DNA from: Mustelus asterias
Lineage: Eukaryota
Length of the DNA: 64,000 nt
Direction of reading: 5' to 3'
Assembly (NCBI RefSeq): GCF_964213995.1
Contig: NC_135818.1
Span: forward strand, 69,316,001 to 69,380,000
Shown here: one piece after another, positions 2,755-57,385 of the stretch
Layout of the letters: each line of letters opens with the position of its first letter
Numbering within the stretch: position 1 is the stretch's first letter
Translations under genes and position numbers: made by a program
Notes under the pieces: model-generated
Database searches by the model: none
What the model was told of the DNA's origin: nothing
What the model saw: the letters and a program-made list of their open reading frames with translations, nothing else

Positions 2755-5700
2755 GGAGAGACCGTAAGATATAAGAGCAGAACAAGGCCATTTGGCCCTT
2801 TGAGAGATTGGCGTATGAAAAAAAGCTAGCAAGAAATGTAAAATCAGACAGCAAGTTAAAGCTTCTGCAAGTATATAAAAAGGAAGGGAGTAGCTAAAGT
2901 AAGTTTTGGTCCCTTAGAGGGTGACAGAAACAAGGAAATGGCAGAGACTTTCAACAAGTATTTTATATCCCAGTGGAAGATGCAGAAAGCATTCCAAGAA
3001 TAGTAGAAAATCAAGAATCAAAAGAGACAGAGGAACTTGAACAATCACCATCACTGGATAAAAAGTACTAAGAAAACTGATAAGTCCCTTGGTCTTGATG
3101 GCCTTCATTATAGCATCTTAAAAGAAGTGGTTGCAAAGATAGTGGATTCACTCCCAAAATGCCCTAGATTCTAGAAAAATCCCGGGAAATTGGAGGGAGA
3201 CAGAAAGCAGGAAACTAAAAGGCCAGTTAGTCTAACATCTATCTTTGGGGAGGCAACAGCAGGATATTTACAAAATCGTAATACAATCAGGGATTTTGTG
3301 AAAGGGAAATGGTGTTTGACATAAATAAAAGCAAATTACTGCGGGTGCTGGATGCTTTGACAAAGGGTCATCTGGACTCAAAACGTCAGCTCTTTTCTCT
3401 CCTTACAGATGCTGCCAGACCTGTTGAGATTTTCCAGCATTTTCTCTTATGGTGTTTGACATATTTATTAGAGTTATTAGAGCAGGGTGTATAAAGTAGA
3501 ACCAGTGTATTTGGATTTCTAAAAGGCATTCAATAAAGTGCCAATAAAAGATTGCTGCACAGGATAAAAGTTCATAATGTTGGGGCAATATATTAACATA
3601 GATAGAGGATTGACTAACAAACAGGAAAAATGTGTCAGGATAAATGTGTCATTTTCAGGTGGGCAAACTATAACCGGACAGCACAGTGACACGGTGGTTA
3701 GCGCTGATGACTCACAGCGCTAGGGTCCCGGGTTCGAATCCCGACTTGGGTCACTGTGTGGAGTTTGCATAGTCTTCACGTGTCTGTGTGGGTTTCCTCT
3801 GGGTGGTCCAGTTTTCTTCCACAATCCAAAAAATGTGCGGGTTAGGTGGATTGGTCATGCTAAATTGACCCTTAGTGTCAGGGGGGGCTAGCTAGTGTAA
3901 ATGCATGGTGTTATAGAACATAGAACATTACAGTGCAGTACAGGCCCTTCAGCCCTCGATGTTGCGCCGACCTGTGACACCAATCTAAAGCCCATCTAAC
4001 CTACACTATTCCAATATCATCCATATGTTTATCCAATGGCCATTTAAATGCCCTTAATGTTGGCGAGTCCACTACTGCTGCAGGCAGGGCATTCCACGCC
4101 CTTACTACTCTCTGAGTAAAGAGCTTACCTCTGACATCTGTCCTATATCTATCACCCCTCAATTTAAAGCTATGTCCCCTTGTGCTAGCCATCACCATCC
4201 AAGGAAAAAGGCTCTCACTGTCCACCCTATCTAATCCTCTGATCATCTTGTATGCCTCTATTAAGTCACCTCTTAACCTTCTTCTCTCTAACGAAAACAG
4301 CCTCAAGTTCCTCAGCCTTTCCTCATAAGACCTTCCCACCATACCAGGCAACATCCTGGCAAATCTCCTCTGCAACCTTTCTAATGCTTCCACATCCCTC
4401 CTATAATGCGGCAACCAGAACTATACGCAATACTCCAAGTGCGGCCGCACCAGAGTTTTGTACAGCTGCAACATGACCTCATGGCTCCGAAACTCAATCC
4501 CTCTACCAATAAAAGCTAACACACCGTACACCTTCTTAACAACCCTATCAACGTGGGTGCCAACTTTCAGGGATCAATGCCCATGGACACCGAGATCTCT
4601 CTGCTCATCCACACTACCAAGTATCTTACCATTAGCCCAGTACTCTATAATTCTGTTACTCCTTCCAAAGTGAATCACCTCACACTTCTCCGCATTAAAC
4701 TCCATTTGCCACCTCTCAGCCCAGCTCTGCAGCTTATCTATGTCCCTCTGCAACATCCTTCCGCACTGTCCACAACTCCACCGACTTTACTGTCGTCCGC
4801 AAATTTACTAATCCATCCTTCTACGCCCTCATCCAGGTCATTTATAAAAACAACAAACAGCAGTGGCCCCAAAACAGATCCTTGTGGTATGCCACTAGTA
4901 ACTGTACTCCAGGATGAACATTTCCCATCAACCACCACACTCTGTCTTCTTACAGCTAGCCAATTTCTGATCCAAACCACTCAATCCCATGCGTCCGTAT
5001 TTTCTGCAATAGTTTACCGTGGGGAACCTTGTCAAACGCTTTACTGAAATCCATATATACCATATCAACTGCTTTACCCTCATCCACCTCTTTGGTCACC
5101 TTCTCAAAGAACTCAATAAGGTTTGTGAGGCACGACCTACCCTTTACAAAACCGTGTTGACTATCCCTAATCAAATTATTCCTTTCTAGATGATTATAAA
5201 TCCTATCTCTTATAATCCTTTCCAAAACTTTGCCCACAACAGAAGTAAGGCTCACTGGTCTATAATTACCAGGGTTGTCTCTACTCCCCTTCTTGAACAA
5301 GGGGACAACATTTGCTATCCTCCAATCTTCTGGCACTATTCCTGTGGACTTTAACCTGGTGTTGTGAGACTTCTTGCTATTCCTGTAGTCAATGACGACA
5401 TAAAGATCAAAGCGAAAGGCTCTGCAATCTCCTCCCTAGCCTCCCAGAGAATCCTAGGATAAATCCCATCCGGCCCAGGCGACTTATCTATTTTCAAACT
5501 TTCCAGAATTGCTAACACCTCCTCCTTATGAACCTCAATCCCGTCTAGTCCAATAGCCTGGGGATAGGGTCTGGATGGGATTGTGGTCGGTGCAGACTCG
5601 ATGGGCCGAATGGCCTTCTTCTGCACTGTAGGGATTCTATAACCAGTGGATTGCCATAAATTATAATTGCTTAGTATAAGACATTGGTGTGGATCCTGCT

Positions 5701-6839: not shown

Positions 6840-7345
6840 AAAACTTTTTTTACTCCATCTTTAAAGCTACAAAGCCAACGCTCAGAACGGACCAGGTAAA
6901 CCCAAATCCCTGCTTGCTCCAAAAAACAATTCATGGTTCCCACAAGAGAAATAAACAAGATCCAAGCTGACAAGATAAGGCACTGCACCCCTTCTTGGGC
7001 TGGACCTGAACCAAAAGAAGCTTAAGGCCACAAGCAGCAACCTTATCAAAATGACCCCACTCCTAGCAGATTAAACAAGAGGCCATTTCCAGAGATCATT
7101 TTGACCCCTCAACCAAATCCACAGCAAAACAAGGACCAACTCAAAAAAAAGGGTCCAAGATAATAATACTCCATGCTTGGGCCACAATGGAGATTCCTGC
7201 CCCTAGTCTTGTCAACAGCATCCTCAAGGCTCCCTATCAACAGTAACTGTGAAAGAAGAGTTCTTACTCCTCGGCTGCCGTCTCTGCAAACTGCTCCTTG
7301 AAGCCAGCCCTACAACCTCGTGCGGTCAGAGACCCAGAGCCACTT
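6840..7345 (-). mobile_element. Unclassified A-tailed retroposon sharing a 3' core with the U2-headed element
   Basis: Minus strand 7010-6927 aligns by eye with 54657-54748; ends GGAGTAAAAAAA. The 5' boundary is uncertain. Confidence 0.55.
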
Positions 7346-7768
7346 TCTCCATTCTTAAACTTTCACCAGAAAGCAAGTCTCCCCTTTTCCAGCACAGTGC
7401 ATTGGCAATGCTTTTGCAAAAAAAAACAAAAAGACCAAGGGGAAGGGTGGTGGAAATAAAGTATTCTGTTTTTTAAAAAAAATTTAAACCTACAGATCTC
7501 ATCTTCCAAGATTGTGCCCTTTTATCCAATTGCTGGAGATTAGGGACTGAACAAAGTGATGGTGACTGTGCAGCACAGATCAATGCTCATGTCTCTCTCT
7601 CTCTCCCCCTTCCTCTAGCTGGTGAAGCGGGCTTTGCACATGAGTTTCTGCTGCCTTACATCAGCGTTTTATTTCCTGCTCCCTCACAGCCCAGCCACAA
7701 TCCCATTCATCCACCCCCTTCCACCCTAAAACAAAAAGAAAAGATGTGGGGGTGGTCCTCAGCCTTAC

Positions 7769-10891: not shown

Positions 10892-11156
10892 GCTCAGTAA
10901 GAAGTCTCACAACACCAGGTTAAAGTCCAACAGATTTGTTTGGTATCACAAGCTTTTGGAACACTGCTCCTTCATCAGGTGAGTGGAGAGGTGGGTTCAC
11001 AAACATGGCATATATAGACACAGACTCAATTGCAAGATAATGGTTGGAATGTGAGTCTTTACAGGTAATCAAGTCTCTACAGGTACAGACAATGTGAATG
11101 AAGAAAGGGATAATCACAGGTACCCACCTTAGTCCAAGTCTGGCATCTCCACATCA
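10892..11156. mobile_element. PLE family 1 terminal fragment
   Basis: Same terminal sequence; 13-bp TSD TTTAATATCTTTG at 10879-10891 and 11157-11169. Confidence 0.8.
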
Positions 11157-17289: not shown

Positions 17290-17430
17290 TTAAAAAAAAA
17301 ATTACTCCATTCTTAAAGTTACAAAGCCAATGCTTCGTACCCACAAGAGAGATAAACAAGTCCAAACTGACAAGAAAAGACATTGCATCCCATCTTGGGC
17401 GTGATCCACCACTTGTTCTTAGGCAGAGTA
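17290..17430 (-). mobile_element. 5'-truncated copy of the 6840-7345 family
   Basis: tactccat..ttaaag.tacaaagccaa...ccacaagaga.ataaacaag.tccaa.ctgacaaga is shared with 6851-6975. Confidence 0.65.
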
Positions 17431-24467: not shown

Positions 24468-24863
24468 ATGATGAACTTTCGCCAGCGAATGGGTTGGATT
24501 GGTGTAGGATTGTACCTGCTAGCAAGTGCTGCAGCCTTTTATTATGTATTTGAAATAAATGAAACTTACAACCAACTGGCTTTGGAGCATATTCAGCGGA
24601 ACTCGGAGGACGTGGGGAGTGGAGCCTCTTGGACACAGACAGTAACAGCACGCTTGTTTTCTCTCCCATTCTGGCTCTGGGGCCTTCTGTTCCTGATTCC
24701 GTACCTGCAAATCTTCCTATTCTTATACTCGTGTACAAGAGCAAATCCCAAGACCGTTGGCTACTGCATTTTCCCAATCTATCTGGCTGTCGTCTGCAAT
24801 CGCCACCAAGCTTTTGTCAAAGCCTCCAATCAAATTAACAGATTGAAAATAATTGACACATGA
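24468..24863 (+). CDS. LYSET: Lysosomal enzyme trafficking factor (TMEM251), 131 aa, single coding exon
   Basis: ORF MMNFRQRMGWIGVGLYLLASAAAFYYVFEI...YSCTRANPKTVGYCI...NRHQAFVKASNQINRLKIIDT matches the recalled human short isoform. Two hydrophobic segments; acceptor tattgcag| lies just before 24449. Confidence 0.97.
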   Translation: MMNFRQRMGWIGVGLYLLASAAAFYYVFEINETYNQLALEHIQRNSEDVGSGASWTQTVTARLFSLPFWLWGLLFLIPYLQIFLFLYSCTRANPKTVGYCIFPIYLAVVCNRHQAFVKASNQINRLKIIDT

Positions 24864-36255: not shown

Positions 36256-37441
36256 GTCATGATGTGGAGATGCCGGCGTTGGACTGGGGTAAACACAGTA
36301 AGAAGTTTAACAACACCAGGTTAAAATCCAACAGGTTTATTTGGTAGCAAAAGCCACACAAGCTTTCGGAGCTCCAAGCCCCTTCTTCAGGTGAGTGGGA
36401 ATTCTGTTCACAAACAGAGCATATAAAGACACAAACTCAATTTACATGAATAATGGTTGGAATGCGAATACTTACAGCTAATCAAGTCTTTAAGAAACAA
36501 AACAACGTGAGTGGAGAGAACATCAAGACAGGCTAAAAAGATGTGTATTGTCTCCAGACAAGACAGCCAGTGAAACTCTGTGGGGGTTACAAATAGTGTG
36601 ACATGAACCCAATATCCCGGTTGAGGCCGTCCTCGTGTGTGCGGAACTTGGCTATCAGTTTCTGCTCAGCGACTGCGCCGTCGTGTGTCGCGAAGGCCGC
36701 CTTGGAGAACGCTTACCCGACATCTCCTCCGGAGCCTTCAACATGTCATTGATGAAGACGAACATCTCGCCAAGGCCATCCCCACACCCCCACTTCTTGC
36801 CTTCAAACAACCGCACAACCTCAAACAGACCATTGTCCGCAGCAAACTACCCAGCCTTCAGGAGAACAGTGACCATGACACCACACAACCCTGCCACAGC
36901 AACCTCTGCAAGACGTGCCGGATCATCGACACAGATGCCATCATCTCACGTGAGAACACCATCCACAAGGTACACGGTACATACTCTTGCAACTCGGCCA
37001 ACATTGTCTACCTGATACGCTGCAAGAAAGGATGTCCCGAGGCATGGTACATTGGGGAAACTATGCAGATGCTGCGACAACGGATGAATGAACACCGCTT
37101 GACAATCACCAGGCAAGACTGTTCTCTTCCTGTTGGGGAACACTATTTGTAACCCCCACAGAGTTTCACTGGCTGTCTTGTCTGGAGACAATACACATCT
37201 TTTTAGCCTGTCTTGATGTTCTCTCCACTCACGTTGTTTTGTTGCTTAAAGACTTGATTAGTTGTAAGTATTCGCATTCCAACCATTATTCATGTAAATT
37301 GAGTTTGTGTCTTTATATGCTCTGTTTGTGAACAGAATTCCCACTCACCTGAAGAAGGGGCTTGGAGCTCCGAAAGCTTGTGTGGCTTTTGGTACCAAAT
37401 AAACCTGTTGGATTTTAACCTGGTGTTGTTAAACTTCTTAC
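36256..37441. mobile_element. Penelope-like element family 1: inverted terminal arms around a GIY-YIG endonuclease fragment
   Basis: ORF 36637-37152 contains PCHSNLCKTC...NIVYLIRC..WYIGET..LRQRMNEHR (PLE Cys-rich linker plus GIY-YIG). Arms ~36297-36595 and ~37141-37441 are reverse complements; 12-bp TSD TAAGGAAAGGTT. Confidence 0.9.
37346..37382 (+). ncRNA. Minimal type-I hammerhead ribozyme (PLE family 1)
   Basis: cac CTGAAGA a ggggc-ttgga-gctcc GAAA gc TT gtg: CUGANGA/GAAA/UH core, stem II, palindromic AGCT stem III, cac/gtg stem I. Confidence 0.75.
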
Positions 37442-37453
37442 TAAGGAAAGGTT

Positions 37454-37811
37454 AACACAGTAAGAAGTTTAACAACACCAGGTTAAAGTCCAACAGGTTT
37501 ATTTGGTAGCAAAAGCCACACAAGCTTTCGGAGCTCCAAGCCCCTTCTTCAGGTGAGTGGGAATTCTGTTCACAAACAGGGCATATAAAGACACAGACTC
37601 AATTTACATGAATAATGGTTGGAATGCGAATACTTACAACTAATCCAGTCTTTAAGAAACAAAACAACGCAAGTGGCGAGAGCATCAAGACAGGCTAAAA
37701 AGATGTGTATTGTCTCCAGACAAGACAGCCAGTGAAACTCGGCAGGTCCAGGCAACTGTGGGGGTTACAGATAGTGTGACATGAACCCAATATCCCGGTT
37801 GAGGCCAGTTT
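37454..37811 (-). mobile_element. Second PLE family-1 terminal copy inserted at the same site
   Basis: Near-identical to 36292-36627; followed by a third target copy TGAGGAAAGGTT at 37812-37823. Confidence 0.85.
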
Positions 37812-40327: not shown

Positions 40328-40911
40328 GTGGTGTGGAGATGCCGGCGTTGGACTGGGGTAAACACGTGGTGTCTCACAACACCAGGTTAAAGTCCAACAG
40401 GTTTATTTGGTAGCAAAAGCCACTAGCTTTCGGAGCGCTGCTCCTTCATCAGGTGAGTGGGAGTTCTGTTCACAAACAGGGCATATAAAGACACAAACTC
40501 AATTTACAAAATAATGGTTGGAATGCGAGTCTTTACAGGTAATCAAGTCCTAAAAGGTACAGACAATGTGAGTGGAGAGAGGGTTAAGCACAGGTTAAAG
40601 AGATGTGTATTGTCTCCAGACAGGACAGTTGGTGAGATTTTGCAAGCCCAGGCAAGTGGTGGGGGTTAGAGATAGTGTGACATGAACCCAAGATCCCAGT
40701 TGAGGCCGTCCTCATGTGTGCGGAACTTGGCTATCAGTCTCTGCTCAGCGACTCTGCATTGTCGTGAATTGAGTTTGTGTCTTTATATGCTCTGTTTGTG
40801 AACAGAACTCCCACTCACCTGATAAAGGGGCAACGCTCCAAATGCTAGTGGCTTTTGCTACCAAATAAACCTGTTGGACTTTAACCTGGTGTTGTGCGAC
40901 ATCTTACTGTG
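40328..40911. mobile_element. PLE family 1 palindromic non-autonomous insertion
   Basis: Inverted arms; 12-bp TSD TTTCTTCATTGC at 40316-40327 and 40912-40923. Confidence 0.85.
40421..40455 (-). ncRNA. Minimal hammerhead ribozyme (PLE family 1), sense to GON7 pre-mRNA
   Basis: cac CTGATGA a ggagc-agc-gctcc GAAA gc TA gtg. Further minus-strand copies at 36357-36393 and 37519-37555. Confidence 0.75.
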
Positions 40912-44079: not shown

Positions 44080-45555
44080 TGGGGAAAGAGGAAGAAGGGG
44101 GGGGGTTTAAGGGGGGGAGAGAGAAGAAAGGGGGGGGTTAAAGGGGAGAGAGGAAGAAAGGGGGGGTTAAAGGGAGAGAGGAAGAAAGGGGGGGGTTAAA
44201 GGGGAGAGGGGAAGAAAGGGGGGGGGTTAAAGGGGAGAGGGGAAGAAAGGGGGGGTTAAAGGGGAGAGGGGAAGAAAGGGGGGGGGGTTAAAGGGGAGAG
44301 GGGAAGAAAGGGGGGGGGTTAAAGGGGAGAGAGGAAGAAAGGGGGGGTTAAAGGGGGGAGAGGAAGAAAGGGGGGGTTAAGGGGGAGAGAGGAAGAAAGG
44401 GGGGGTTAAAGGGGAGAGAGGAAGAAAGGGGGGGGGTTAAAGGGGAGAGAGGAAGAAAGGGGGGGGTTAAAGGGGAGAGAGGAAGAAAGGGGGGGGTTAA
44501 AGGGGAGAGGAAGAAAGGGGGGTTAAAGGGGAAGAGGAAAAAGGGGGGGGTTAAAGGGGAGAGAGGAAGAAAGGGGGGGGTTAAGGGGAGAGAGGAAGAA
44601 AGGGGGGTTAATGGGGAGAGAGGAAGAAAGGGGGGGTTATGGGGGAGAGAGGAAGAAAGGGGGGTTATGGGGAGAGAGGAAGAAAGGGGGGGTTATGGGG
44701 GAGAGAGGAAGAAAGGGGGGTTTATGGGGAGAGAGGAAGAAAGGGGGTTATGGGGGAGAGAGGAAGAAAGGGGGGTTATGGGGGAGAGAGGAAGAAAGGG
44801 GGGGTTATAGGGGAGAGAGGAAGAAAGGGGGGGTTATGGGGAGAGGAGGAAAGGGGGGTTATAGGGGAGAGAGGAAAAAAGGGGGGTTATAGGGGAGAGA
44901 GGGAAAGGGGGTTATAGGGGAGAGAGGAAGAAAGGGGGGTTATAGGGGAGAGAGGAAGAAAGGGGGGGTTATAGGGGAGAGAGGAAGAAAGGGGGGTTAT
45001 AGGGAGAGAGAAGAAAGGGGGGGTTATAGGGGAGAGAGGAAGAAAGGGGGGGTTATAGGGGAGAGAGGAGAAAGGGGGGGTTATAGGGGAGAGAGGAAGA
45101 AAGGGGGGGTTATAGGGGAGAGAGGAAGAAGAAAGGGGGGGGTTATAGGGGAGAGAGGAAGAAAGGGGGTTTTGGGGGGGTTTGTTTAGGGGGGGGGTGT
45201 GTGTTTTGGGGGGGGGTGTGTTTGGTTTGGGGGGGGGGGGTGTTTGGTTGTTTGTTGGGGTTTGTTGTTTTGGGGGTGTGGTTTTTGGGGGGTGTTTTTT
45301 GGNNNNNNNNNNNNNNNNNNNNNNNNNNNNNNNNNNNNNNNNNNNNNNNNNNNNNNNNNNNNNNNNNNNNNNNNNNNNNNNNNNNNNNNNNNNNNNNNNN
45401 NNNNNNNNNNNNNNNNNNNNNNNNNNNNNNNNNNNNNNNNNNNNNNNNNNNNNNNNNNNNNNNNNNNNNNNNNNNNNNNNNNNNNNNNNNNNNNNNNNNN
45501 NNGGGGAGAGAGGAAGAAAGGGGGGGGTTAAGAGGGAGAGGAAGAAAGGGGGTTT
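44080..45555. repeat. Purine/G-rich minisatellite (~27-30-bp unit GGGGAGAGAGGAAGAAAGGGGGGGTTA(AA/TG/TA)) spanning an assembly gap
   Basis: Dozens of tandem units at 44080-45170 and again at 45503-45555. Confidence 0.95.
45303..45502. other. Assembly gap (200 N)
   Basis: Run of N. Confidence 1.
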
Positions 45556-46879: not shown

Positions 46880-47345
46880 ACCCTGGGATTTGGGGAGGGA
46901 GGTAGGGGGGGTCCCCCCACTCTGTGGATCACTGGGGTGATCTCCTCCCCCCACCTCCCTCCCCAAATCCCAGTGACCCACAGAGTGGGGTGATCCCCCC
47001 CACCTCCCTCCCCAAATCCCAGTGATCCACAGTGAGAGAGATCCCCTCTATCTCCGTCCCAAAATCCCAGTGATCCACAGAGTGGGAGGGATCCCCTCTA
47101 CCTCCCTCCCCAAATCCCACTCTGTGGATCACTGGGATTTGGGGAGGGAGGTAGAGGGGATCCCTCCCACTCTGTGGATCACTGGGATTTGGGGAGGGAG
47201 GTAGAGAGGGTCCCCCCCACCCTAGATCACTGGGATCTGGGGAGGGAGGTGGAGGGGATCCCCCACTCTGGGTCACTGGGATTTGGGGAGGGTTGCAGAG
47301 GGAATTCCCCCACTCTGTTGGGCCTGGGATTTGTGGAGGATGGCA
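46880..47345. repeat. ~45-50-bp tandem repeat array with an internal inversion (UBR7 intron 1)
   Basis: Unit ccactctgtggatcactgggatttggggagggaggtagaggggatccc in + (46880-46937), - (46938-47118) and + (47119-47345) orientation. Confidence 0.85.
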
Positions 47346-47367
47346 GGGACCCTTTTCATGTGAGATA

Positions 47368-47475
47368 CAGTAAGGAGTCTAACAACACCAGGTTAAAGTC
47401 CAACAGGTTTATTTGGTAGCAAACGCCACTAGCCCAGTCCAGGTATTACCCCAGTCCAACGCTGGCATCTCCACA
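47368..47475. mobile_element. PLE family 1 short insertion
   Basis: 12-bp TSD TCATGTGAGATA at 47356-47367 and 47476-47487. Confidence 0.8.
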
Positions 47476-50269: not shown

Positions 50270-51982
50270 TTGCATGATCAGTCTTCACAGTAGAAGACAT
50301 GAGTAATATCCCAACAATTCAGGAAAGTCAGGGGGCAGAGTTGAATATGGTTGCCATCACAAAGGAGAAAGTGCTAGAGAAACTAAAAGGTCTGAAAATT
50401 GATAAATCTCCGGGCCCAGATGGGCTACATCCTAGAGTTCTAAAGGAGATAGCTGAAGAAATAGTGGAGGCGTTAGTTATGATCTTTCAAAAGTCACTGG
50501 AGTCAGGGAAAGTCCCAGAGGATTGGAAAATCGCTGTTGTAACCCCACTGTTCAAGAAGGGAACAAGAAAAAAGATGGAAAATTATAGGCCAATTAGCCT
50601 AACCTCAGTTGTTGGCAAAATTCTAGAATCCATCGTTAAGGATGAGATTTCTAAATTCTTGGAAGTGCAGGGTCGGATTAAGACAAGTCAGCATGGATTT
50701 AGTAAGGGGAGGTCGTGCCTGACAAACCTGTTAGAGTTCTTTGAAGAGATAACAAATAGGTTAGACCAAGGAGAGCCAATGGATGTTATCTATCTTGACT
50801 TCCAAAAGGCCTTTGACAAGGTGCCTCACGGGAGACTGCTGAGTAAAATAAGGGCCCATGGTATTCGAGGCAAGGTACTAACATGGATTGACGATTGGCT
50901 GTCAGACAGAAGGCAGAGAGTTGGGATAAAAGGTTCTTTCTCAGAATGGCAACCGGTGACAAGTGGTGTCCCGCAGGGTTCAGTGTTGGGGCCACAGCTG
51001 TTCTCTTTATATATTAACGATCTAGATGACGGGACTGGGAGCATTCTGGCCAAGTTTGCCGATGATACAAAGATAGGTGGAGGGGCAGGTAGTATTGAGG
51101 AGGTGGGGAGGCTGCAGAAAGATTTAGACAGTTTAGGAGAGTGGTCCAAGAAGTGGCTGATGAAATTCAACGTGGGCAAGTGCGAGGTCGTACACTTTGG
51201 AAAAAAGAATAGAGGCATGGACTATTTTCTAAACGGTGACAAAATTCATAATGCTAAAGTGCAAAGGGACTTGGGAGTCCTAGTCCAGGATTCTCTAAAG
51301 GTAAACTTGCAGGTTGAGTCCGTAATTAGGAAAGCAAATGTAATGTTGTCATTTATCTCAAGAGGCTTGGAATACAAAAGCAGGGATGTACTTCTGAGGC
51401 TTTATAAAGCACTGGTTAGGCCCCATTTGGAGTACTGTGAGCAATTTTGGGCCCCACACCTCAGGAAGGACATACTGGCACTGGAGCGGGTCCAGCGGAG
51501 ATTCACACGGATGATCCCAGGAATGGTAGGCCTGACATACGATGAACGTCTGAGGATCGTGGGATTATATTCATTGGAGTTTAGGAGGTTGAGGGGAGAT
51601 CTGATAGAAACTTACAAGATAATGAACGGCTTAGATAGGATGGACGTAGGGAAGTTGTTTCCATTAACAGGGGAGACTAGGACGCGGGGGCACAGCCTTA
51701 GAATAAAAGGGAGTCACTTTAGAACAGAGATGAGGAGAAATTTCTTCAGCCAGAGAGTGGTGGGTCTGTGGAATTCATTGCCACAGAGGGCTGTGGAGGC
51801 CGAGACGTTGAGCGTCTTCAAGACAGAAATTGATAAATTCTTGATTTCTCGAGGAATTAAGGGCTATGGGGAGAGAGCGGGTAAATGGAGTTGAAATCAA
51901 CCATGATTGAATGGTGGAGTGGACTCGATGGGCCGAATGGCCTTACTTCCGCTCCTATGTCTTATGGTCTTATGGTCTTATG
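50270..51982 (+). mobile_element. Young 5'-truncated CR1 LINE; open 531-aa ORF2 reverse-transcriptase fragment (50299-51894)
   Basis: [38 protein letters not shown] and FADD motifs with no stops; 3' tail (TCTTATGG)n. Confidence 0.95.
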
Positions 51983-53867: not shown

Positions 53868-53921
53868 ACGCCTGATGAAATGATTCAATGTGTCGTATGT
53901 GAAGACTGGTTCCATGGAAGG
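53868..53921 (+). CDS. UBR7: UBR7 exon 5 (TPDEMIQCVVCEDWFHGR)
   Basis: ctccag| acceptor, GTAAGA donor, 54 nt; follows a 96-nt intron. Confidence 0.96.
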
Positions 53922-54063
53922 GTAAGACAACTGTTCATGTGTACATAGTTTTTATTTAAGTTTGACGGTCTTTTGTTTTGGAACCATTTGAGGTGTGGAG
54001 AACAGAAACAGAGAATGCCGGAAAACCTCAGCAGGTCTGACAGCATCTGTGCGGAGAGAATAG

Positions 54064-54102
54064 AGCCAACGTTTCGAGTCTGGATGACCCTTCGTCAGAG
54101 TT
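54064..54102 (-). ncRNA. Minimal hammerhead ribozyme (PLE family 2)
   Basis: aact CTGACGA a gggtc-atcca-gactc GAAA cg TT ggct; palindromic ACGT stem III. Confidence 0.7.
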
Positions 54103-54458
54103 GTGAGCAAAGAGAATCAGCAGAGATTTATACTGTTGGGATGGGGGGAGAGGGGGGTGTGGAATGGGGCAAAGGGAATGTAAATGAGGATACAGAAGGC
54201 TGAGAAGGTGCTAAAAGTGTCCATTAGGTGATCAGAATGGCAGAATCTGTACCTCTGTTCTGCCATTCACACATTCTGATCACTTAATGGACACTTTTAG
54301 CACCTTCTCAGCCTTCTGTATCCTCATTTACATTCCCCTTGCCCCATTCCACACCCCCCTCTCCCCCCATCCCAACAGTATAAATCTCTGCTGGTTCTCT
54401 TTGCTTTCAACTCTGATGAAGGGTCATCCAGACTCGCAACGTTGGCTCTATTTTCTCC

Positions 54459-54786
54459 TCGCTTCTCGGCCTTTTGGCTAAGATCAAGTGTGGTCTGGTG
54501 ATGCTGCACTTGGTCATGGCCATTGGGTTGCTTTTAAGCTTCATTTTCACATGAAGCAATTTTTTAAAGCGGCATCTCGGCCTTTTGGCTAAGATGCAAA
54601 TGAGATCAAGCCTTGGGGGACGGAGACGTCTGCCTACTCCAATCAGCTTGGCTCATGTAGATCAGGCCCAGGACAGGGTAAAGGGTTGCATGCCCTGTCT
54701 TGTCAGCCTGGATCGGAAATGTCTCAACTTGTTGAGACTCTGAATTGGACTTGATTTGATTGAATTGGAAAAGTACAAAAAAAACA
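54459..54786 (+). mobile_element. U2 snRNA-headed retroposon (SINEU-like) with poly(A) tail and TSD
   Basis: 54459-54491 equals U2 nt 2-34 (TCGCTTCTCGGCCTTTTGGCTAAGATCAAGTGT). A second U2-derived segment lies at 54572-54610, A8 at 54777-54784, and the direct repeat TTGGCTCTATTTTCTCCTC at 54442-54460 and 54787-54805. Confidence 0.85.
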
Positions 54787-57385
54787 TTGGCTCTATTTTC
54801 TCCTCTCAGATGCTGTCAGACCTGCTGAGATTTTTGAGTACTTTCTGTTTTTGTTTCATATTCCAGCATCCGCAGTATTTTGCTTTCATCATGAGGTTAT
54901 AGAATGTAGTTCGTTGCTTATCAGTCCAATAGCAATCTCTCTTTCTCTCTCTCTCTCACATACACACACACACACACACACAACGCCCCCCCCTCCACCC
55001 CCCGTGGCCTTATATTGTCTGCCTCAACTATTTATCCACTTTTTCCCTTTAAAAATCGGTGACTTGATGGGCTGAATGACCTCTTCTGCGCTGTAGGGAT
55101 TCTATGAAAATATTTATCAGTCCTTGTCTCATCTACTCCATATTCCATCAGCTCTTCATGGAGAAAGTAAAATGGATTGTTGTTACCTGGTTGTTGGAAA
55201 ATAAGAATGATTTTAGATCACTTTTTAAAATGATTGCTGTTCGGTTTTTGTTATCTGAGCTTGAGGGGAGAGAAAGGAGAGTAATCCGTCTAGTTTAAAG
55301 TGTGCAATGGATGGATGTGATTTTTCTTTGTTATCCAAACTCCTGGAAATGTTGTAGTTAATCTGGTGTCAAACCCATTTGGTATTTGAGTGATTATTTA
55401 GGGTGTGAGATTGTAGCCATAGCTGTGACTGACCTATTGGCTATACTGTTTTACACGGAGGATGGTGGGTGTCTGGAACCATGTCTCCATAGATTAATTC
55501 CAGCTTGTTTACTCCAAATTGCAGTAGTCTGTGTTCTGGCTGTCCTTCTGATAGTCTTTACCCACACCCTCACAGCTACTAAGAACATTGCACCTATTGG
55601 GTGAATCCGTTTCTGCAGTCTTTGTTTGTCATCTCAACCGGATTCTCCTCGCTCTGGAACTATCGGTCTGATCAATGTCTGTAGCAAACCTGGCCAGATA
55701 CTGCTCCCCAACCCTAATAGCTTAGCATGTTTCAACACACACTCTAGTTCAATGACCGTGAACCTGTGGGTGTCATTGGCAAGGCTCGCATTATTTTTGC
55801 ACATCCTTAATTGCCCTTGAACGGGATGGTTTGCCATTTCAGGAGGCAGTTAAGGGTCCGTCACATGTAGGCCGGACCAGATAAGGACAGCATATTTCCT
55901 TCCCTAAGGTTTATTAATGAGGATAGTTTCATAGTCTCAGTAATGGTGGCCATGTTTTAATTGCAGATTTTGTTTTAATTGAATTTAAATTCCACTAAGT
56001 GCTACGGTGGGATTTGAACCCGTGTGCCCCAGAGCATTCTCCTGGACCTCTAAATTACTGATGCAATGACAATACCACCACGTCACTGTCTCCCCACATA
56101 CTGCAGGCCAGCCTCAGTGTTCACAAACTCATTCTGCAGTCCAGACACACAACCTGTTCTGCTGTTCAGACTGGATTATTCACATCTACTGCTTGGTTTG
56201 TATGTTTGCTTTTGTGCTTCTTTTGCACAGATGCCGTCAGACCCTGAGCTTCTCCGGCATTTTCTGTTTTTTGGCCCATCTTTTACATCCTGTTTATGAT
56301 TTACTCTGTTTACGCTCACTCTTTGCATCAGCAGATACACATATACCTGTGTACACCCAGTTACAGAGACACACAAGTTGCAGTTTCCTGCTCACAGTAA
56401 TTGGCACCTGTTTTAGGTGATCATTAATGACAATCTGATTCTGTTCACTAGTTTGCAGTTCCTTTTACCGTTTATTTTTTAAATTCCAAGCTAAATGTAA
56501 AATGCACACCCACTATTTAATCTTTCTTCATTTTTCTTCCCCCACTCTTTTTCCCCCTACTTATCCCTCTTCCCTTCCCTTTTTCTCCCCCTTTGCTTCT
56601 CCTTTTCTAAACCCTACCTCTGTCCCATCCATTTTCCTTCCCCTCCACTCCCTCCCCCAACATCTTCATTTCAGCTTCTCTGCCGTTTGGCCATTCGCAC
56701 CTTTTATTCTCTCTGGGGACAGCCATTAGCAGCCTTTTCCCCTGGTTTCTGTGGCTATGACTCATCTTTCATTCCCTCACCCTGCAGTATAAATATCTCC
56801 CATTTTCTGTGCCTTTCAGCTTTGACGAAGGGTTAGCTGGACTTGAAACGTCAGCTCTTTTCTCTCCTTACAGATGCTGCCAGACCTGCTGAGATTTTCC
56901 AGTATTTTCTCTTTTCGTTTCAGATTCCAGCATCCGCAGTAATTTGCTTTTATTCATGTATTCATCTAGATGTCCCTTAAGTACCTGCTCCCACCACCTC
57001 CCCAAGCAGTGCGTTCCAGACATTCGCCACCCTTTTTAAAAAAAAACTTGCCTCGCACATCTAAGCTTTTCCCCACGCACCTTAAACTTATGCCCCGTAG
57101 TACTTGCCAACTTATGCACTCTGTTTATAATGCATTCTATTTGCATCTGCAGTTTACAGCCAGTTAAATACTTGGAGCATTGTCAGTGTTGTAAAGAAAT
57201 AACGAGCTGCCACATACAGCAATGTAATGGAGACCAAATCACCTTTTGTTTTAATGATGTTGATTTGAGGGATAAATACAGCTCAGCCACTGAGGATTAC
57301 CCCCTGCCCTTGTTCAGAATAAAGCTCTGGGATAGTTTTCATTCATCTGAGGTAGTTTAATGGTTCCTCTGCACTGCACAGGAAT

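Follow-up and report, generated by a model that had tools for sequence, protein, structure and literature searches.

Retroposons headed by small nuclear RNA (snRNA) sequence, the SINEU elements, are reported by Kojima (2015; PMC4494074) only from crocodilians. That study reports sequential addition of heads, poly(A) ends, a preference for insertion into Mariner-N4_AMi, and Tx1-Mar partners, and it leaves open both how SINEU is transcribed and why U1 and U2 heads recur. No snRNA-headed retroposon of sharks turned up among the papers listed in searches of the open-access literature, a body of text without most subscription journals or Repbase Reports, and a term search of the available text of PMC11979771 and PMC12361510 returned no mention of snRNA. 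A catalogue entry for the element described below may therefore exist already, although we think it less likely than not.

The window considered here is the whole stretch of shark DNA that was analyzed, 64 kb in length. It contains a discrete insertion of 326 nt (54459-54784, plus orientation), a retroposon that is real and SINEU-like, carries an antisense arm that we have not found described, and is known from one copy in the 64 kb. A first-pass annotation had recognized a SINEU-like layout, and the element does combine the features given for SINEU in PMC4494074: a U2 head, short length, lack of coding capacity, poly(A), a target-site duplication (TSD), and no pol III promoter. The reading that we favor, with a probability of about 0.5, is that a structured, non-autonomous retroposon of SINEU-like build inserted here recently by an L1/Tx1-type route, after its U2 heads had been gained in repeated captures, possibly with the aid of the arm. 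Within this favored reading, we propose that the likeness to crocodilian SINEU arose by convergence. The parts of the insertion are as follows.

54438..54460, plus strand: left TSD, 23 nt, the last 2 nt doubling as U2 nt 2-3
54459..54494, plus strand: U2 head 1, with nt 2-34 exact, nt 35 changed, and nt 36-37 matching (cmscan alignment and human U2 primer)
54500..54530, plus strand: antisense-U2 arm, from folding and duplex energy, with 54500-54502 added by eye from the cmscan alignment
54538..54565, plus strand: 7-bp hairpin followed by T6, from folding; pol III terminator-like and loosely Sm-site-like
54572..54610, plus strand: U2 head 2, comprising U2 nt 4-27, in which stem-loop I has grown to 10 pairs from the original 7, and behind it a second occurrence of U2 nt 24-31
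54611..54655, plus strand: linker, no more structured than shuffles (z -0.07) and without an Rfam U2 match
54656..54776, plus strand: tail domain, homologous to two older repeats and containing hairpins of 17 bp (54663-54710) and 7 bp (54721-54738)
54777..54784, plus strand: A8 tail, the last two A lying inside the right TSD
54783..54805, plus strand: right TSD, by sequence comparison with the left TSD

Like SINEU-1 (PMC4494074), this element is shorter than 500 nt, stacks U2 5' pieces over an unrelated 3' body, ends in poly(A), has internal T runs and no pol III head, and is inserted in another transposon. Unlike SINEU-1, it has a shark host, a TSD of 23 nt as opposed to the ~10 bp occasionally seen there, and an antisense-U2 arm, of which the SINEU-1 text used here makes no mention. 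Its tail, unlike that of SINEU-1, has identifiable older relatives, and the two elements are likened by architecture, not by sequence. U2-derived parts and repeated 5' additions are shared with SINEU-2, whose additions were made with short junction homology, and a U2-derived 5' piece is shared with SINEU-3, in which it spans 32 bp (PMC4494074). Those two families, however, hold U2 3' or middle sequence, and SINEU-2 also U1, whereas Rfam found neither U1 nor a U2 middle or 3' part in the shark retroposon. A young shark element of SINEU layout would mean that retroposons with snRNA heads originated on two or more occasions, or else that they are much more ancient than has been assumed.

Insertion into a palindromic host repeat

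The insertion lies within a palindromic repeat that also carries a small ribozyme-like motif.

54001..54855, no strand assigned: host palindromic repeat, with its left arm at 54001-54246 and its right arm at 54265-54460, resuming at 54806-54855
54413..54443, plus strand: minimal hammerhead-like motif carried by the host arm in the same sense as the retroposon, with the core GAAA reading GCAA in this copy

The palindrome arms are 94% complementary over 194 nt with an 18-nt spacer, and the retroposon interrupts the right arm. The uninterrupted opposite arm serves as the empty site: both flanks of the insertion align there, overlapping by the TSD only. The two TSD copies (54438-54460 and 54783-54805) are identical at 22 of 23 positions, the sole difference being a CG to CA change, and the 19-nt exact core, the 23-nt length with one CpG difference, and the A8 end are all as first read. 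The insertion is thus a genuine retrotransposition event, with an A-tail, a long TSD, and an agreeing empty-site arm. It is probably young because the TSDs differ at one CpG only and U2 head 1 is nearly exact. The element is short and non-coding; the three ORFs of at least 75 aa that overlap it gave no Pfam match. No further U2-headed copy was found in the 64-kb window by blastn, nhmmer, or a covariance model of the tail (n = 1); the covariance-model search recovered its 3 training sequences, followed by 2 matches at E > 1.

By analogy, we infer that the host palindrome is a Penelope-type repeat. Its hammerhead-like motif, one per palindrome arm, consists of the core, a stem II of 5-6 bp, and then a short palindrome, and minimal hammerheads of such layout are carried by Penelope-like elements (PMC6155905). 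Stem II is kept in all seven folded copies, four of the host repeat and three of a second repeat. The start of the TSD falls inside the GAAA core. Ten places in the window match the host arm, whose ~100-nt end covers 869 of 64,000 bases, and one retroposon insertion is found there. The palindrome also causes microRNA-like Rfam matches at 54200-54336.

The two U2 heads

The Rfam U2 model (RF00004) aligned at 54458-54614 with 39.1 bits (E 3e-6), under the gathering score of 46; at gathering level, Rfam gave no match anywhere in the window, which contains no U2 gene. The exact 33-nt match to the U2 5' end seen at first reading holds: 54459-54491 equals U2 nt 2-34 at 33 of 33 positions, compared by eye with the Rfam consensus line, and U2 nt 1-20 was checked against a published human primer (PMC13019295). 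At nt 35, head 1 has G for A, its one departure from U2 in 36 positions. With this change and an altered loop, head 1 does not look like U2 sequence newly and cleanly copied.

The second, diverged U2 segment at 54572-54610 is borne out both by Rfam (model positions 7-26, E 0.044) and by its identity to head 1 (23 of 24 positions over 54572-54595). Three changes in head 2 each gain one stem-loop I pair, taking the stem-loop from -8.2 to -14.5 kcal/mol. Seven nucleotides follow, and then U2 nt 24-31 occur again at 54603-54610. Upstream of head 2, cmscan placed the T6 hairpin module (54538-54565) on the U2 Sm-site columns with low posterior probability. Downstream, cmscan of 54565-54790 and 54606-54690 for a U2 middle or 3' fragment gave stem-loop I alone, and 54611-54655 could hold a very diverged remnant. 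A resemblance of 54611-54672 to U2 stem-loops III/IV was rejected; it has no Rfam support, and the sequence from 54656 onward is better explained by tail homology. Rfam matches to NEAT1_1, PART1_2, and mir-26 (E 3-9) were taken as chance.

The stretch 54599-54612, in which U2 nt 24-31 recur, has a mean probability of 0.4 of pairing with 54747-54761, at the 3' end of the tail. Because of this predicted pairing, the U2 segment with nt 24-31 may be masked in both modules.

An antisense-U2 arm

The first-pass annotation had described the spacer between the heads as ~80 nt of unrelated sequence. It begins instead with an antisense copy of U2. Over 54503-54530, 25 of the 28 positions find a partner in head 1, in a single register and at a mean pair probability of 0.94 (17 Watson-Crick and 8 G-U pairs, with 3 mismatches), and 54500-54502 are complementary to U2 consensus nt 38-40. 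The duplex energy, -40.1 kcal/mol, compares with -19.7 +/- 3.0 in shuffles, none of 1000 being as good, and is equaled by 4 of 653 background segments of the window. The fold of the whole retroposon (-129.1 kcal/mol, z -5.4) is equaled by none of 100 shuffles. In the fold ensemble, the native stem-loop I of head 1 has a probability of 0.0, and the three hairpins named at first reading (gcttcat/atgaagc, gacaggg/ccctgtc, and gtctcaac/gttgagac) form at mean pair probabilities of 0.93-0.98. The gap in folding energy between plus and minus strands is equaled by 6 of 126 window segments. The bias toward G-U over A-C pairs (8:0) is weakened as proof of RNA selection, as the host DNA palindrome gives 5:1. 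Two other origins of the spacer were considered and rejected: tandem duplication of the body, for which the score of 15 was equaled in 257 of 300 shuffles, and kinship with the 7 kb repeat described below, for which 90 of 300 shuffles did as well.

Relative to an exact complement of head 1, the arm departs at 11 of 28 positions (5 A>G, 3 C>T, 3 other). On sequence divergence, it looks older than head 1, because head 1 departs from U2 at only 1 of 36. By eye, the arm forms 21 Watson-Crick and 7 G-U pairs with real U2 over 31 positions. It fits real U2 better than its own head 1, because it keeps the partner of U2 A35 and the complementarity to nt 38-40. The arm could provide a concrete mechanism for head capture or for masking of spliceosome-active sequence.

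Strong modular folding and an anti-U2 stretch of 28-31 nt, together with a U-rich stretch between hairpins that resembles an Sm site, are also what might be expected if the insertion were a processed retrocopy of a functional single-locus shark RNA, for example a variant form of U2 or a scaRNA-like guide to U2, and not a selfish element. However, no sno/scaRNA family in Rfam matched the retroposon, the arm is not followed by a D box (by eye) and its duplex is rich in wobble pairs, the tail is common to interspersed repeats, and the U-run lacks the G of the Sm consensus. We consider such an origin very improbable.

The arm also bears on the earlier suggestion of insertion into U2 genes and transcription from the U2 promoter. 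In this model, the source would be a non-autonomous Keno/Tx1 derivative residing in U2 genes (nt 37-39) and using the external U2 promoter, the arm would be a 5' UTR pairing with the U2 leader, and the present copy would be a stray off-target insertion. Such a model could apply to a source locus that lies elsewhere, since head 1 extends to the U2 5' end (nt 2-4) and ceases to match at nt 34-37, near the site shared by Keno (Tx1 clade) and Utopia (nt 37-39). The model accounts just as well for a near-exact head next to an arm of greater age. Keno inserts 37 nt into U2 (PMC6136364), the U2 downstream of Utopia begins at nt 39 and reptile Utopia has TSDs of 20 bp, similar in length to that found here (PMC4640811), and Tx1-Mar clusters with Keno and has some U2-headed members (PMC4494074). 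Keno and Utopia are, however, autonomous and have the rest of U2 downstream, whereas the shark copy has neither an ORF nor a U2 flank; no U2 is found after its tail or in its upstream flank, and its flanks belong to the putative Penelope-type repeat. Furthermore, the U2 sequence of head 2 extends no farther than nt 27-31, and the complementarity of the arm takes in nt 38-40, past the Keno/Utopia site, a 3-nt match with a chance of ~1 in 64. This copy does not support residence in U2 genes or use of their promoter, and we regard the model as unlikely.

The tail domain and its older relatives

A body of ~165 nt had been noted behind the second head. The body is there, and most of it, a point new to the first reading, is common to two other, A-tailed repeats in the window.

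6850..7010, minus strand: older relative, 7 kb copy, with the common tail domain; may reach ~7479 (11-nt low-complexity direct repeat)
17301..17410, minus strand: second older relative, 17 kb copy, with the common tail domain; 82% identical to the 7 kb copy

The tail (54656-54776) matches 7015-6927 and 17409-17323, both on the minus strand, and is collinear with them as far as the A-/T-rich ends. Its identity to the relatives is 59-61%. With the retroposon as query, nhmmer found them at E 9e-4 and 0.21; from the 7 kb copy, E was 4e-5, and between the two relatives 4e-11. The homology score of 69 compares with a maximum of 40 among 300 shuffles, and a reversed window gave no match. A 15-letter tail motif is exact in the retroposon and both relatives; allowing up to 2 mismatches, it has 5 matches in the window, a number reached by 1 of 100 shuffles. 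Across the three sequences, 56 of 59 cells preserve the pairing of the 20-pair tail hairpin, with two double-sided changes, and the covariation of these three sequences was not above that of shuffles (48-240 of 500 as good). Neither relative carries a small-RNA head.

The common tail could serve as a handle toward a partner LINE, of the kind that is missing for SINEU-1. The window yielded no such LINE, and Pfam and protein searches gave no Tx1 partner. The 7 kb copy, which may be a truncated LINE, contains an insertion of 51 nt and, upstream, what may be a decayed reading frame. At 7141-7472 (minus strand) lies a possible, Tx1-like LINE ORF2 remnant; no match to it was obtained by word search, in 1.84 billion representatives, or in Pfam. 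Bacterial genomes held no match to the tail motif and one to the host-repeat motif, in DNA of 67% GC in which the 23-mer alone is common, the collection being uninformative for shark repeats.

A tail drawn from an older repeat family, like the single copy in the window, would also be expected of a single- or low-copy chimera, in which an L1/Tx1-like repeat 3' end, U2 pieces, and a fold-back inversion were joined in one or two accidents that never founded a family. Chimeras of snRNA and LINE made by template switching are known (PMC4494074), and these, together with tailless U2 retropseudogenes (PMC5322556), share with our element a U2 5' fragment that starts a TSD-flanked insertion. Unlike them, the shark retroposon has a second head, an antisense arm, and a structured body with an A-tail. 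Divergence is much greater in the arm than in the head with which it pairs, head 2 has stem-extending changes, and the tail shares only 59-61% identity with its relatives, as against 82% between those two; the TSDs, by contrast, differ at a single position in 23. Because arm, head 2, and tail have diverged to this extent while the TSDs have not, the template had a long history before insertion. With a near-exact head 1 adjoining an older arm, an altered and improved head 2, and a diverged tail, this layered history goes beyond one template switch and argues against a single accident. As a lone chimera, the retroposon would be a curiosity; we find this account improbable.

Proposed mechanism

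The insertion was considered and rejected as a classical pol III SINE: no tRNA, 5S, or 7SL head with an internal promoter was matched, and the T runs inside it (four of T4 and one of T6) argue against pol III. Because of these same features, its RNA would be made by pol II from flanking promoters. An A-tail with a TSD of more than 20 nt points to enzymes of the L1/Tx1 clade, not CR1 or L2. In the favored reading, an L1/Tx1-clade LINE would bind the tail and the A-run and insert the element by target-primed reverse transcription. U2 heads would be gained more than once, as the reverse transcriptase jumps from the 5' end of the element onto U2 snRNA. The arm may promote this capture, because with U2 nt 10-40 annealed to it, U2 nt ~40 would adjoin the 5' end of the element; a template jump at that point would yield the observed fold-back. 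In the finished RNA, the arm is predicted to mask head 1. We infer both the repeated template jumping and the arm-promoted capture from geometry alone.

A more elaborate reading joins arm-guided U2 capture in a candidate shark family with Tx1 targeting of the hammerhead core and a ribozyme-made 5' end. Here the encoded anti-U2 arm would anneal U2, steer the reverse transcriptase, and renew the head each time; a Tx1 enzyme would target the hammerhead core of the Penelope repeats; and read-through transcription followed by ribozyme cleavage ~15 nt upstream of the head would supply the 5' end. If true, this combination would account both for the transcription of snRNA-headed elements and for their continued gain of heads. 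We judge it quite improbable as a whole.

Genomic setting

One exon of a host gene lies upstream of the retroposon.

53868..53921, plus strand: host-gene upstream exon, preceding the retroposon in the same orientation

This gene is probably UBR7, judging from the peptide and from synteny with TMEM251. The next exon was not located downstream, so an intronic position of the retroposon is presumed. The first exons of the UBR-box gene start from 46075 (plus strand), and a TMEM251 (LYSET) coding exon lies at 24468-24863 (plus strand). Pfam was run on 190 of the 195 stop-to-stop ORFs of at least 75 aa, leaving out five low-complexity ORFs at 44351-45186, and the matches above curated cut-offs were three RVT_1 pieces, TMEM251, and zf-UBR. 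Reverse-transcriptase (RVT_1) ORFs lie at 50278-51894 (plus strand) and 4004-5435 (minus strand), one of them open for 538 aa; the pieces are presumably CR1-like.

The second repeat with a hammerhead-like layout occurs at 36360-37552, 10950-10978, and 40819-40846, and its three copies flank a repeat ORF (36625-37149). This ORF, which resembles the GIY-YIG region of Penelope, had 76 matches among 120 candidates, one of which carries PF01541. The named matches are all from sharks (Heptranchias, Mustelus, Chiloscyllium, and Scyliorhinus), in line with the shark origin first assigned to the DNA. The segments 44350-45500 and 46900-47400 hold tandem repeats rich in purines, which surround a 200-N gap, and an inverted/tandem repeat of high GC content that gives the most stable fold in the window.
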